Virus genome (UHGV): UHGV-1651579
From: a virus
Direction: 5' to 3' (one strand)
DNA length: 21,812 bases
The position numbers and the translations under genes are program-made. Every line of letters begins with the position of its first letter. Position 1 is the stretch's first letter. Shown in pieces: positions 1,466 to 13,114 of the stretch. Below the pieces are notes generated by a model that saw only the letters and a program-made list of their open reading frames with translations, did no database searches and was not told the DNA's origin.

Positions 1466-1484
1466 GATTAATTCCTTATCGTAA

Positions 1485-1500
1485 ATAACAAATTGTTTTC
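1485..1500 (-). promoter_or_regulatory. P1 box copy a (ATAACAAATTGTTTTC) within promoter/leader cassette 1466-1560
   Basis: near-palindrome AACAA-A-TTGTT; in gene orientation cassette reads TTGACG-N17-TAATTA-CACCAACAAG-AAAACAATTTGTT...AAGGA...ATG. Confidence 0.6.
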
Positions 1501-1640
1501 TTGTTGGTGTTAATTATCGTTGTACGAATAAGGCGTCAAAGTGGAAAGTTGCGGTAGCCGGACGGGAACAGGTGGGTTTGTCGGTTGCCTGGAGGTAAGA
1601 GGTTGGTGTTTTTAGCCTGCGGGAAACAGGATGGTCATTT

Positions 1641-1664
1641 AAGGCCACCAGCATTGGTGGCCTT
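1641..1664. repeat. hairpin element AAGGCCACCA-gcat-TGGTGGCCTT (copy 1)
   Basis: 10-bp perfect stem directly 3' of CDS 1670-1951; related copies at 2112-2135 and 8015-8036; contains Chi complement CCACCAGC. Confidence 0.6.
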
Positions 1665-1669
1665 ACTCT

Positions 1670-1951
1670 TTAGTGGAGCAGACCGATGTCGATGGTATCC
1701 CCTGAATCATCCACACGGATCATCAGCATGGCGAAGGCGTTTAGTGGATAGCTTGCGTGCCATTCAGGGAAGCGGTCATCTCGCATGAAGTCGGCAATGT
1801 CGTAAACGCAGCCCTCAAAGTGGAAGAATCGCGTGCTTACCTGCTCGTCATATTCCACATGATCCATTTCTTGCTGTTCTGTTTCCGGCAAGTCCAGCCA
1901 TGATTCAAGGAATACATTTTGTGCTTTAGGGGTAATGGTGAAATCAGTCAT
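1670..1951 (-). CDS. hypothetical protein (about 93 aa)
   Basis: track ORF 1670-2083 runs through the upstream cassette; internal ATG at 1951 has GAGGA at good spacing (alternative ATG at 1957). Confidence 0.5.
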   Translation of the reverse strand: MTDFTITPKAQNVFLESWLDLPETEQQEMDHVEYDEQVSTRFFHFEGCVYDIADFMRDDRFPEWHASYPLNAFAMLMIRVDDSGDTIDIGLLH

Positions 1952-1970
1952 GAGCATATCCTCACTGCGT

Positions 1971-1984
1971 AAACATATTGTTTT
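1971..1984 (-). promoter_or_regulatory. P1 box copy b (AAACATATTGTTTT) within cassette 1958-2040
   Basis: cassette aligns with 1466-1560 copy, including CACCAACAAG. Confidence 0.6.
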
Positions 1985-2111
1985 CTTGTTGGTGTAATTA
2001 TCGCAGTGTAGATAAGGCATAAAAGAAGTTAATACAGGCTGAATACACAAGAAAGGTTCTGGAAGTTGATAGCCAGGTTTCAAACTAACCTTCGGTTATT
2101 AAAAGTCATTT

Positions 2112-2135
2112 AAGACCACCAATGCTGGTGGCCTT
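2112..2135. repeat. hairpin element AAGACCACCA-atgc-TGGTGGCCTT (copy 2)
   Basis: one stem mismatch; loop inverted relative to copy 1; contains Chi GCTGGTGG at 2124-2131. Confidence 0.55.
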
Positions 2136-2140
2136 AATAA

Positions 2141-10023: not shown

Positions 10024-10025
10024 TA

Positions 10026-11711
10026 TCATTTTACACGTTTGAAAACGTATACGCTGACAGTGATTCCGGTGTCTTCAAACTCGTCAGTAAACGACTTCCC
10101 TTTGGCATAAACGTAATTATCCAGCGACATCCAGTTCAGAACTGGCGCATCACCCGGCAATACAGCCACCAGTCGCCCGCCGACTTTAAGATGCTCCAGC
10201 GCGGCCAGCGTATGCTCTCTGTGACGGTCAAGAGAGTAGGACGGGTTCATAACGATTTTGTCGAACTGATAACCTGCGTTGACCTCAGACCACTTCATGA
10301 AGTCGCAGCAGACCGTATTTGTGTACCCCTTGCCAAGCAGGATATCAGCGAAGAGAGGTGCGACTTCTATGCAGGTAACGTCTTCCGGATTGGCGTCGAT
10401 GCAGGCCAGCAGATCTCCGCGCCCGGCTTCAGGCTCCAGCAGCTTCTCACCTTGCTTCAGCTCGATGGCTCTGGCAACGTACTCCGCTATCAAACGCGGG
10501 GTAGGGTAGAACTGGTGTGATTTTGTATCCGGTATTAAGCCGGTGGCCACAATCGTATTGAGCGTATGGCCGATCTCATACGGGAACTGCCAGTGCCTTT
10601 TCTCCTGCACGCCGCCAATGAAGTTCAGTGTGCGCTCAAGCTCTTCCACCTGCGACTTCTGGAGGTTGGAATCAGAGAAGTACCAGACGCCTTTATCTTT
10701 GCTGAATCGCCCGTTGCGCAGCGCGGTACGAACCGGCTCGGAGATCGTCTTCTGGATTAACCCGAACTCTTTTGGTGCCCGTGTTTTGGGTGCAGTACGG
10801 CATGGCGCCGGGATTGCTGCAGGCATACTGTAAGCCAGCACCTCATTCAGCTTCCAGGCTACGTCAGGATGTATTTCAAAGTGAACGTTGCCGTTCTTAA
10901 ACATCTTCACACGCATCAGGTTTCCGTCGACATTCATCCAGTCGCCGGTCTGGCAGTCATTTGCTCGATACGCAGCTGACAGCATCTCGGCCGTGCGGTT
11001 GATGGTGATAAATTCTTTGTGTGCAAAGAAATGCAACATGACGCGCAGGTCGTCTATGTAATCCTCTTTCCGGTAGTTAACGCTGACGCTGTCCCGCCAG
11101 AAATCGGAAATGCAGTCGGCGATGATCAGACGCTCGCTGAAGCCGTTCGTCTTATTGGTCTTGTGAGCAGGACTCAACGCCTTAAACAAGCCATACACGC
11201 GCTCAGAGAGATATTTGTGCCTGTCATTCAGCAAATTAAGCATCGTTGGTATGACCGTTTCTGCTTTGAACTCAGGTACACCAACGAACTCTTTAACCTT
11301 CATTTGATAGCCAGTTCTGTCAGTCTTGATCGTTTCCTGCTTGCCCTCGATAAACTGTTCACGCCACTCGTCGCGGCGGGATGCTGGCATGATCAGCAGA
11401 ACGTTGGTCATATCCGTGACCTTCTTCCAGTATTCAGCCCAGATGTTCTGTTTCACCCATTCCAGGTCGACTTTGTCCAACCAGGCTCTGTTAAAGCGTG
11501 TGCGCTCGTCATCCGGCCGGTGGTTGAGTCGCAGCAGGCGGTTAATCATGCTGTGGCGTTCGTCGCCATAAACGAAGTCGTGAACCTGATGCATGAATGC
11601 GATCTCTTTCTCGCACTCGGCCACAATTTCGTGGATAACGTTCATTTCCTGCCGGTAGTCGATATCAGTGTTTGGAGTGATAGCGTCAATGATGGAAAGG
11701 GCTGTATTCAT
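10026..11711 (-). CDS. orphan gamma-class N6-adenine DNA methyltransferase with about 380-aa N-terminal domain of unknown function (about 561 aa)
   Basis: C-terminal motifs in order FYPTP, LEPEAGRGDL (SAM binding), IVMNPSY (NPPY-type catalytic); track start 11729 is TTG, first ATG at 11711. Confidence 0.75.
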   Translation of the reverse strand: MNTALSIIDAITPNTDIDYRQEMNVIHEIVAECEKEIAFMHQVHDFVYGDERHSMINRLLRLNHRPDDERTRFNRAWLDKVDLEWVKQNIWAEYWKKVTDMTNVLLIMPASRRDEWREQFIEGKQETIKTDRTGYQMKVKEFVGVPEFKAETVIPTMLNLLNDRHKYLSERVYGLFKALSPAHKTNKTNGFSERLIIADCISDFWRDSVSVNYRKEDYIDDLRVMLHFFAHKEFITINRTAEMLSAAYRANDCQTGDWMNVDGNLMRVKMFKNGNVHFEIHPDVAWKLNEVLAYSMPAAIPAPCRTAPKTRAPKEFGLIQKTISEPVRTALRNGRFSKDKGVWYFSDSNLQKSQVEELERTLNFIGGVQEKRHWQFPYEIGHTLNTIVATGLIPDTKSHQFYPTPRLIAEYVARAIELKQGEKLLEPEAGRGDLLACIDANPEDVTCIEVAPLFADILLGKGYTNTVCCDFMKWSEVNAGYQFDKIVMNPSYSLDRHREHTLAALEHLKVGGRLVAVLPGDAPVLNWMSLDNYVYAKGKSFTDEFEDTGITVSVYVFKRVK

Positions 11712-11723
11712 GATTGCACCATT

Positions 11724-11740
11724 AAACAAATTGTTTTTTT
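11724..11740 (-). promoter_or_regulatory. P1 box copy l (AAACAAATTGTTTTTTT) within cassette 11712-11775
   Basis: followed by GTTGGTGTTATTATTTC; 13 nt upstream of ATG 11711. Confidence 0.6.
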
Positions 11741-11882
11741 GTTGGTGTTATTATTTCAAAATTGAGTAGGTAATAAATAAGGATTCACAAGCTGCACAGG
11801 GAGATACTTATAAGTTTATTGAGTTTGCTTAATACTCAACTGACAACTACACGTAAGATATTTGTCGCCTCCTTATTGAGTA

Positions 11883-12302
11883 ATGATGATGAAGAAAATT
11901 ATATTGCTGGGAATTGCCAGCGCTTTTGCTGTGAATGTCTACGCCAACAACACAGAGCAAGGTTTTAAAGAGACCGGCAGGGCAACCAGCTATGTTAAAT
12001 GCGCTCTTTATGCCGACATATCGAATATCTACACAGACAAATCCAGTGCAGTGCCTGCTGAAAATGCAAAACAGTTCAGAATTCTCGCGCTGAAGCACTG
12101 GAGAAAGGCAAATGAATTGCTTGGCAACGTTAAAACCGGAGATGATGAAATCGTCGACTTTGCCGTCTATCTATCATCTCAGGAATCAGTGGCCTGGGAC
12201 GCTCACCCTGAAATGAACAATTCGAATAATGACAGAGGCAATCCGGCAACTGCGGCATACATGAGCGAAAATTGCGGCTTATTGTTAGACGCCGCAAAGT
12301 AG
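11883..12302 (+). CDS. secreted hypothetical protein (139 aa)
   Basis: N-terminal signal peptide MMMKKIILLGIASAFAVNVYA; AT-rich by eye; followed by hairpin GGGGGC-ttt-GCCCC. Confidence 0.5.
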   Translation: MMMKKIILLGIASAFAVNVYANNTEQGFKETGRATSYVKCALYADISNIYTDKSSAVPAENAKQFRILALKHWRKANELLGNVKTGDDEIVDFAVYLSSQESVAWDAHPEMNNSNNDRGNPATAAYMSENCGLLLDAAK

Positions 12303-12327
12303 AGTAGGGGGCTTTGCCCCATATATA

Positions 12328-12906
12328 TTAATGATGTAAAGGCTGCATCTTTTGCGGCTGCGGCTGTTTGTTCAGGTCGTGGCGATGGGTCAGCTCGCGC
12401 ATCATGTCTTCAAGACGGCTCTTGGTGTCGTCAAGCTGGTCGGCCATTGCCCCCAACAGCTGGCGAAGGGCCATCGGATCGTCGCTGTTCAGCTCAGGCA
12501 TTTTGAACCCAGCCTGGGAAGACATCAGTTTGAAAGCGGCCAGCAACATCGCCAGAGAAGACTTCAGCCCGGCGATTTCACGATCTTTGCTGGCGTTGGT
12601 TTCATCTGCCTTGACTGAATCCGGTGAGCACTTCGGCTTGCTTACCATTTCCAGAGTTGCCTTAAGTTTGTCGGCGCGTTCTTTCTCTTCCAGATACGCT
12701 TCGCCGAAATGACGCGCCAGCATCACAATTTCAATCGGATCATCAATCATGCTTGAGAACTTGAGAACGCTGAAAAGGCGGTCAATAGGGGAGGCGTCGT
12801 CTTCGTGACCAACCACAAGACCCATGATCTCAACCAGTTCGGCCGCACCAACTTTTTTAATCACGCTTTCAACTTTGGCATTAGTTTTTTTGCATTTTTC
12901 ACACAT
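12328..12906 (-). CDS. hypothetical protein (192 aa)
   Basis: ATG at 12906 with AAGGAAG upstream; own cassette with P1 box. Confidence 0.55.
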   Translation of the reverse strand: MCEKCKKTNAKVESVIKKVGAAELVEIMGLVVGHEDDASPIDRLFSVLKFSSMIDDPIEIVMLARHFGEAYLEEKERADKLKATLEMVSKPKCSPDSVKADETNASKDREIAGLKSSLAMLLAAFKLMSSQAGFKMPELNSDDPMALRQLLGAMADQLDDTKSRLEDMMRELTHRHDLNKQPQPQKMQPLHH

Positions 12907-12926
12907 GCGCTCTTCCTTATTCTTTT

Positions 12927-12940
12927 AAACAAGTTGTTTT
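12927..12940 (-). promoter_or_regulatory. P1 box copy m (AAACAAGTTGTTTT)
   Basis: about 20 nt upstream of ATG 12906. Confidence 0.6.
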
Positions 12941-13114
12941 CTTAATTGTTTAATTGTCTCAAATTCTATGATGATGTGAAGAGTTGCATTAAGGCGAAAA
13001 GACACGCAAAAGGAAAAATCAGGCATACCAGACATTTATTTAAAGTGGCATTCATAGCAGAATGTTCTCATTGCCGAAGTTCTATTCAGACGTCAGTCCC
13101 TAAGAGAGAGCAAA

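Follow-up and report, generated by a model that had tools for sequence, protein, structure and literature searches.

In the viral genome UHGV-1651579, analysed here as one stretch of 21,812 nucleotides (the window), a short near-palindrome of the form AAACAA-N-TTGTTT recurs in front of unrelated small genes, and this raises the question of what the repeated box is and what acts on it. The window is the accessory and early-gene region of a phage-plasmid of the SSU5/pHCM2/pMT1 type, and the region shares 89% identity with Salmonella phage SSU5 and with Escherichia phage-plasmids such as Cyrano (from strain LF82). The reading to which we give somewhat better than even chances is that the box is a 13-bp palindromic DNA operator, bound by a dimeric regulator that the phage-plasmid encodes outside the window.

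A palindromic box phased with promoters

The window was searched with the query AAACAANTTGTTT, at most one mismatch being allowed, and the expectation was obtained from shuffled sequence. Twelve boxes were found against 0.08 expected, and no shuffle reached 12. In plus-strand coordinates they start at 1486, 1971, 2721, 3619, 4110, 5690, 7257, 7308, 7686, 8002, 11724 and 12927, and all of them are confined to positions 1486-12939. The thirteen copies reported in the initial annotation consist of these 12 sites and one decayed copy, AAACAACATATTT, which has two mismatches and lies at 4488-4500, before the ATG at 4455. In Cyrano, sites with two mismatches are at chance level (nine observed, nine expected), and thus only sites with at most one mismatch carry signal.

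None of the boxes overlaps a likely gene; the long open reading frames (ORFs) that some of them overlap are extended readings from TTG or GTG. All boxes lie between genes, and at the annotated starts they are found 11-20 nt before the ATGs at 1465, 1951, 3607, 4097, 7244, 11711 and 12906, and 59 and 89 nt before those at 2661 and 7596, respectively. The cargo is indeed unrelated, since the downstream proteins belong to different PHROG families, which are annotated as of unknown function. Across 58 unique sites from four genomes, the twelve symmetric positions are nearly invariant, AACA...TGTT above all, and the central base carries 0.04 bits of information. The box core is thus AACA-N3-TGTT within a 13-bp palindrome with a free central base. 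Such symmetric half-sites around an unconstrained centre fit a homodimer on double-stranded DNA.

The boxes fall into two arrangements with respect to -10 hexamers. In class A, the hexamer (GATAAT, TATTAT, AATAAT, GACAAT or TATTGT in the window) ends 13-14 nt upstream of the box in seven of seven window cases, and a TG precedes it in six of the seven. In class B, TGn and a -10 hexamer lie 19 nt downstream of the box, which often directly follows the terminator hairpin of the preceding gene; at both class B boxes of the window, the TG stands two bases ahead of a hexamer with four or more of its six positions matched. Extended -10 promoters, which are defined by TGn and a hexamer whose second base is A and sixth base is T and which can do without a -35, are thus predicted at these boxes. 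Relative to the predicted starts, the class A box sits at about +8 to +20 and the class B box is centred at about -38. Promoters with two boxes 51 bp apart exist in the window (7308/7257), in Cyrano (93114/93165) and in a Klebsiella relative (24940/24991).

Over the four genomes, a -10-like hexamer is in phase with 36 of the 58 sites, against a background of about 10%. The distance from box to ATG, on the other hand, varies from 11 to 89 nt in the window; the box keeps register with promoters, not with ribosome-binding sites. A strict two-hexamer (-35/-10) scan found five promoters where 14.6 were expected, and this rarity of good -35 hexamers is as expected for extended -10 promoters.

The unit in the window reads, in order, terminator, optional box, TGn and -10 hexamer, box, Shine-Dalgarno sequence and gene. 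At least two cassette sequence families were recognized, type I being GATAAT-(T)AACACCAACAAGA and type II TTGTAGCCGTTTT..CTGGTATTATTTACGC.ATTGAGA, and several cassettes share 30-60 nt outside the box. A reusable cassette of promoter and box placed before unrelated genes, as originally described, is therefore present. The larger promoter and leader module that had been drawn around the box also exists, but its constant partner is the (TGn) -10 hexamer, and the good -35 that was part of the description is usually absent.

Conservation in SSU5-type elements and silence in the lysogen

Parts of E. coli plasmids match the region at 99.7% identity. In related records, its neighbours are genes for capsid, terminase, tail, thymidylate synthase, dihydrofolate reductase and ribonucleotide reductase. 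The cassette region was matched in 767 plasmids, of which 739 are non-mobilizable and which, among the matches listed, are about 100-137 kb in size; they come from Klebsiella, Escherichia, Enterobacter, Yersinia (pMT1 type), Salmonella (pHCM2 type), Citrobacter and Cronobacter. Because of the phage-gene neighbours and the predominance of non-mobilizable plasmids, the element is assigned to the SSU5-type phage-plasmids. The earlier description had been framed by conserved-upstream (CUP) repeats of IncN, which belong to the leading region of conjugative plasmids, and that setting is rejected on this context of capsid, terminase, thymidylate synthase and similar genes. Very large match counts in some searches with the window are probably due to fragments of insertion sequences (ISs) and not to cassettes, judging from the IS annotations among the matches listed.

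SSU5 contains 20 boxes (fewer than 0.4 expected) and Cyrano 18 (about 1.1 expected). They are spread over the whole element, from terS to the accessory region, and nearly all are intergenic, 11-73 nt upstream of genes on the main, lytic-direction strand. The genes preceded by boxes include terS, parA, a dnaB-like helicase gene, cobT, nrdB and tciA as well as many small accessory genes, and the association with small cargo genes alone, which the window had suggested, does not hold, since terS, parA, helicase, cobT and nrdB are core genes.

In about 80 IMG/VR relatives, exactly the parA and helicase boxes are kept, while the intervening cargo differs in length. At 45-90% protein identity, a Klebsiella phage-plasmid still retains boxes at terS, parA and the helicase gene, and has 13 further boxes in its accessory region. 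When the region upstream of the helicase gene was aligned for 21 relatives, AGAAAACAA-N-TTGTTTAA and the Shine-Dalgarno sequence were nearly invariant and the central N was T, A, C or G; the preceding 25 nt change from relative to relative, but a -10-like hexamer (TAGTAT, TACGAT or CATAAT) is kept among them. Two more distant relatives, with TerL 63-66% identical and the same gene order around terS, have no box in the 21-kb terS/terL locus of each, and carry other palindromes there. These two share the palindrome AGCTCTCAGGAGCT and CTCAGAG-type repeats upstream of terS (L107 9211-9224; L108 about 9318-9335), which may be the equivalent operator of the box-less lineage. Outside these elements, a scan of genome contigs for an exact double box yielded pairs, with 34-42 bp spacing, only in unrelated taxa, namely several Prevotellaceae and a few others, which are probably an unrelated repeat or chance.

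In the terS leader of SSU5 (L004 56-133) and Cyrano (57-134), two boxes 25 bp apart are followed by a GC-rich hairpin and T-run like an intrinsic terminator. From this layout, the structural operon might also be controlled by antitermination.

RNA sequencing of the Cyrano lysogen of LF82 shows that the genes right after boxes are mostly at background, with values of 5.7-7.8 against a median of 9.8 (PMC9928086, S1 Table). The values are 7.1 for terS, 7.8 for cobT, 5.7 for gene 58, 7.0 for tciA, 7.1 for gene 87, 6.3 for gene 93, 7.5 for gene 101, 5.7 for gene 108 and 6.7 for gene 110 (PMC9928086, S1 Table). The boxes of Cyrano stand only before plus-strand genes, and no minus-strand gene has one; most of the genes expressed in the lysogen are on the minus strand, namely the toxin-antitoxin pairs, repA and genes 43, 45, 99, 117 and 118. 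The expression data and the strand bias are weakly consistent with repression in the prophage state.

The operator of one repressor, one of the two roles offered in the initial annotation, stays the best reading of the box; we infer the binding by a protein, the repression on binding and the identity of that protein alike. About 20 operators per genome would then lie at fixed positions on extended -10 sigma-70 promoters. From about +8 to +20, an operator would be an obstacle to RNA polymerase in the manner of lac O1; the second position, centred at about -38, would lie over the -35 region, and paired operators 51 bp (about five helical turns) apart might allow cooperative binding or looping. 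One protein could in this way silence, in the plasmid prophage, the structural operon, the replication and nucleotide-metabolism genes and many single-gene accessory cassettes, and induction would release all the operator-controlled genes together.

A perfect LexA/SOS box, TACTGTTTATATGTACAGTA, is found at 7611-7630 on the minus strand. It overlaps with the -10 region of the promoter, TTGACC, that precedes the gene at 7330-7596. This gene encodes 88 aa of unknown function (phrog_2100, a homologue of SSU5_103) and is a candidate for an SOS-controlled antirepressor or early gene. Ciprofloxacin induces Cyrano about 40-fold. A LexA-controlled antirepressor acting on the box-binding repressor would be a plausible link between the box and SOS induction.

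Candidate binders and competing explanations

Of five Cyrano proteins tested as candidate binders, none has a homologue in the window, PDB sequence searches with three candidates gave no match, and in Cyrano no box precedes an annotated regulator gene, which would have been a clue to autoregulation. The best-conserved candidate of its kind is the CYRAN_123 family, small winged-helix proteins whose gene immediately precedes the terS boxes; the helix-turn-helix region hardly varies, and the family is confined to SSU5-like phages. Two other candidates were rejected. CYRAN_117, which looks like a ribbon-helix-helix protein by eye and is expressed in the lysogen, has no homologue by tblastn in the 85 kb searched of the box-bearing 110-kb Klebsiella relative. 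As to the ParG-like protein encoded after parA, SSU5 and Cyrano have annotated genes of unlike size and layout at that place, and the Klebsiella copy has an identity of only 49%, against a constant box. The ParB-family genes CYRAN_119 and CYRAN_120 are 66-68% conserved in Klebsiella, and are not transcribed in the lysogen (values of 5.0 and 9.5; PMC9928086, S1 Table).

Several findings weigh against a repressor acting through the box. Pfam and PHROG scans of the window ORFs show no recognisable DNA-binding protein. CYRAN_123 is at background level in the lysogen (PMC9928086, S1 Table), and it is weakened as the binder by its recognition helix, which is almost identical in distant relatives that have no box in the 21 kb examined. 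Some box units are expressed in the lysogen, with values of 50 for parA, 89 and 55 for genes 29 and 30, 21 for the helicase gene and 25.5 for gene 111 (PMC9928086), and any repression is therefore not uniform. The agreement with the RNA sequencing data is weak evidence, since silence in lysogens is the rule for phage genes in any case. Finally, 22 of the 58 sites have no phased -10 hexamer under the strict criterion, and the box positions at promoters are relative to start sites that are predicted.

The best-surviving alternative, though an unlikely one, places the action of the box in RNA: in the 5' untranslated region (UTR), before the Shine-Dalgarno sequence, the box would be bound by an FljA-family protein that represses translation or destabilises phage mRNAs in the lysogen. 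This model is kept alive by a core FljA-like protein with an Hfq fold that is expressed in lysogens. The Salmonella relative of this RNA-binding protein, FljA, represses the translation of fliC. The gene of the FljA-family protein (PF03614, E = 1e-80 in Cyrano) is a core gene of SSU5-type elements that lies outside the window (Cyrano 100780-101301; SSU5_121) and bears the family name 'repressor of phase-1 flagellin'. It was found in 831 plasmids, including those of Klebsiella pneumoniae and Yersinia pestis, two species that are not known to be motile. In its AlphaFold model, the protein has two Sm/Hfq-like domains in tandem, and the class A boxes do lie in the predicted 5' UTR. However, the FljA-like protein of the Klebsiella relative is only 36% identical and the box there is unchanged, and the recognition of single-stranded RNA is not expected to need an exact palindrome. 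The class B boxes, moreover, are upstream of the -10 hexamer, outside the leader, which fits action on DNA and not on RNA. The box keeps its phase with the -10 hexamer, whereas its distance to the ATG varies, as noted above, and compensatory base changes are not seen.

The E. coli fliC leader, which we take to be the FljA target, contains no box, and blastn-short searches of this leader against Cyrano and the window returned only matches of up to 14 nt with E of at least 0.1, so that similarity to an FljA target was rejected. The likeness to the FljA/fliC translational operator consists in the FljA-family core gene and in class A boxes that lie by the Shine-Dalgarno sequence of predicted 5' UTRs, but it ends with the fliC leader lacking a box and the class B boxes lying outside leaders. 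As a separate observation, a 12-nt sequence, TGAGCCGACGGG, identical to part of the stem-loop in the E. coli fliC leader, is present at 886-897 (minus strand) of the window and at 99026-99037 of Cyrano; it lies downstream of a 160-aa gene and, with E of about 0.1-0.5, may be due to chance.

A shared leader RNA element, the other role proposed at first, finds little backing in the folding of the box or in the boxes upstream of -10 hexamers. As RNA, the box can fold no further than an A-U stem of 5-6 bp closed by a triloop (-0.2 to -1.6 kcal/mol), and the leaders have folding z-scores of -1.4 to +0.4, six of the seven being within 0.5 of zero. An Rfam search for a structured leader gave no matches. 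A structured RNA or riboswitch was therefore rejected, the energies of hairpin and leaders being near those of shuffled sequence. The DNA operator is favoured because an exact palindrome around a free central base is characteristic of sites that dimers occupy on double-stranded DNA.

Next in order, and likewise improbable, is a box that binds a lytic-phase regulator, either an activator or a dual regulator, or that loads an antiterminator, and so times the early and late genes. Extended -10 promoters without a -35 are typical clients of activators, and the class B boxes are centred at about -38. The terS leader, with its paired boxes and terminator-like hairpin, would suit this role, as would the conserved winged-helix gene CYRAN_123 directly upstream, which is silent in lysogens. 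Most boxes, however, are at +8 to +20, which is a repressing position, and the CYRAN_123 recognition helix is unchanged in the box-less relatives.

We consider it quite improbable that the box is bound by a host protein common to Enterobacterales. An identical box in Escherichia, Salmonella and Klebsiella elements, despite their diverged phage proteins, is what such a protein would produce, and the candidate search yielded no phage-encoded binder. But about 20 copies per 100 kb on one type of element point to an element-specific regulator, and the relatives at about 65% TerL identity carry other palindromes, such as AGCTCTCAGGAGCT upstream of terS. To our knowledge, the box matches no E. coli operator consensus. 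The weakest alternative is a functionless box that is merely carried along in a duplicated promoter cassette; the flanks shared by type I and type II cassettes speak for it, but at terS, parA, helicase, cobT and nrdB the box persists with flanks that are unrelated or turned over, and only the 12 symmetric positions are nearly invariant. This explanation is held to be very improbable.

The window box by box and its known counterparts

All the promoter-linked boxes of the window whose orientation could be given lie on the minus strand. The class A box at 1486-1498, which reads AAACAATTTGTTA on that strand, is 20 nt from the ATG at 1465, and its -10 hexamer GATAAT (1513-1518, minus strand) lies 14 nt upstream. 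The class A box at 1971-1983 is 19 nt from the ATG at 1951, with TGn-GATAAT (1997-2002) 13 nt upstream. The box at 2721-2733 is of class B; it follows a terminator-like hairpin and has TGn-GAAAAT (2696-2701) 19 nt downstream, before the ATG at 2661. Class A boxes at 3619-3631 and 4110-4122 lie 11 and 12 nt from the ATGs at 3607 and 4097, and have TGn-TATTAT (3646-3651) and TGn-TATTGT (4137-4142), respectively. At the decayed box AAACAACATATTT (4488-4500), whose sequence was read directly, the cassette TGn-GATAAT-AACACCAACAAG before the ATG at 4455 is otherwise intact. Two further class A boxes are at 11724-11736, 12 nt from the ATG at 11711 of a DUF4942 methyltransferase-like gene, with TGn-AATAAT at 11750-11755, and at 12927-12939, 20 nt from the ATG at 12906, with TGn-GACAAT at 12953-12958 and TTCACA as the -35.

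The two-box promoter of the window comprises box O1 at 7308-7320, centred at about -38, and box O2 at 7257-7269, at about +8 to +20 and 12 nt from the ATG at 7244 of a DUF1380 gene; both are on the minus strand, 51 bp apart from centre to centre, and the TGn-GATAAT hexamer (7283-7288) lies between them. The box at 7686-7698 is in a divergent region, with ydfZ (plus strand, 7784) on one side and the gene with the LexA box (minus strand, ATG 7596) on the other. The orphan box at 8002-8014 lies directly after a hairpin, between a convergent LprI-like gene and ydfZ. Its counterpart at Cyrano 85818 has the hairpin and box followed by a promoter, which bears out the earlier suggestion of a cassette remnant, and it does look like a class B box that lost its promoter to the convergent ydfZ.

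A full box at 5690-5702 (minus strand), with a -10-like TATATT 8 nt upstream, has no ORF after it and faces a noncoding repeat region. This region, at about 4520-6040, is 1.5 kb without a convincing gene and with strong strand skew; one half is C/A-rich on the gene-sense strand, the other half repeats GGGAAAAGG-type motifs, and degenerate direct repeats include three 30-nt tandem units and units containing ...ACGCCATTAC.... Noncoding blocks of this kind, with boxes at their start, also exist in SSU5, Cyrano and the Klebsiella relative. An Rfam search with the block gave no match; it may encode a long noncoding RNA, or serve as a lytic origin or in packaging.

A box-less type of promoter is found at about 3205-3230 (minus strand), upstream of the gene at 2779-3174, where a palindrome, TAAGTACTTA, and ACTTACTTAT stand directly before (T)GATAAT. 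The motif of ACTTACTTAT with a -10 hexamer also precedes the UvsW operon of Cyrano, which is expressed in the lysogen, and occurs near terS of a distant relative (L107 8990-9040); the 90-bp stretch is conserved even in Klebsiella elements. At its left end (1-58), the window has a 58-bp fragment that is found identically where phage RCS47 carries an insertion, and that is probably the end of an IS. Its right part (13000-21812) is rearranged phage-plasmid backbone with zero boxes, which encodes an Mrr-like restriction endonuclease (13115-14074), a Rep3-type RepA (18800-19855), RNase H and a truncated Dam.

A regulon of dispersed operators on a plasmid prophage is a kind of system that is already known. 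C1 of phage P1 binds operators at many separate promoters, before replication, late-control and accessory genes, and so provides a multi-operon immunity and not a single OR/OL switch. The present element is similar in being a plasmid prophage with one operator repeated genome-wide, at 20 sites in SSU5 and 18 in Cyrano. The C1 operator, however, is an asymmetric 17-mer, ATTGCTCTAATAAATTT, whereas the box is a 13-bp palindrome of unrelated sequence at which repression is inferred. No C1-like protein is named in the annotations of the SSU5 and Cyrano records, where no dedicated C1 homology search was made.

The KorB/KorA system of RK2 (IncP-1) offers a likeness in form. Its OB site, TTTAGCSGCTAAA, is a 13-bp palindrome bound by a ParB-family protein that also acts in partition, and both OB and the box have 6+1+6 symmetry, about a dozen or more copies per replicon and places at promoters of several functional modules, those of partition genes among them. 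They differ in sequence, in the replicon, which is a phage-plasmid here and a conjugative plasmid there, in the ParB-family genes CYRAN_119 and 120 being untranscribed in the lysogen, and in position, which is -38 and +14 for the boxes as against classes I, II and III for OB. With the two-operator promoters of the lac O1 type, the box shares an operator at about +14 and an auxiliary site 51 bp upstream on the same helix face, a likeness that is positional only and rests on predicted start sites. The CUP repeats of IncN (pKM101) are also promoter-bearing cassettes repeated before unrelated small genes, some of them anti-restriction in flavour; however, the sequence differs, the replicon here is a phage-plasmid, and the conserved unit is a short operator and not a long repeat. 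No relation between the two was demonstrated. In short, the dispersed promoter-operator regulon would resemble P1 C1 and RK2 KorB in logic, and belong to neither. In the literature, we could not find any paper with the box sequences, nor any on the regulation, lysogeny maintenance or lytic switch of SSU5-like phages.

SSU5-like elements rank with the most common phage-plasmids in Escherichia, Klebsiella, Salmonella, Enterobacter and Yersinia; the SSU5/pHCM2/pMT1 lineage comprises roughly 800 plasmids in PLSDB, including plasmids of S. Typhi and Y. pestis. One 13-bp site at about 20 promoters provides a ready map of the regulon and a bait sequence for its regulator. The cassette of promoter and operator would explain how unrelated accessory genes come under phage control, and its cargo includes candidate anti-defence genes, namely those for DUF4942 methyltransferase-like, DUF1380 and DUF5983 proteins. 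A more far-reaching version, which we hold to be a long shot, is that the box is the master operator of this whole enterobacterial lineage and that its binder is of a yet-unrecognised kind, in the boldest form the FljA-like core protein. If that were true, FljA, the repressor of flagellar phase variation, would be a domesticated global regulator of phage-plasmids.

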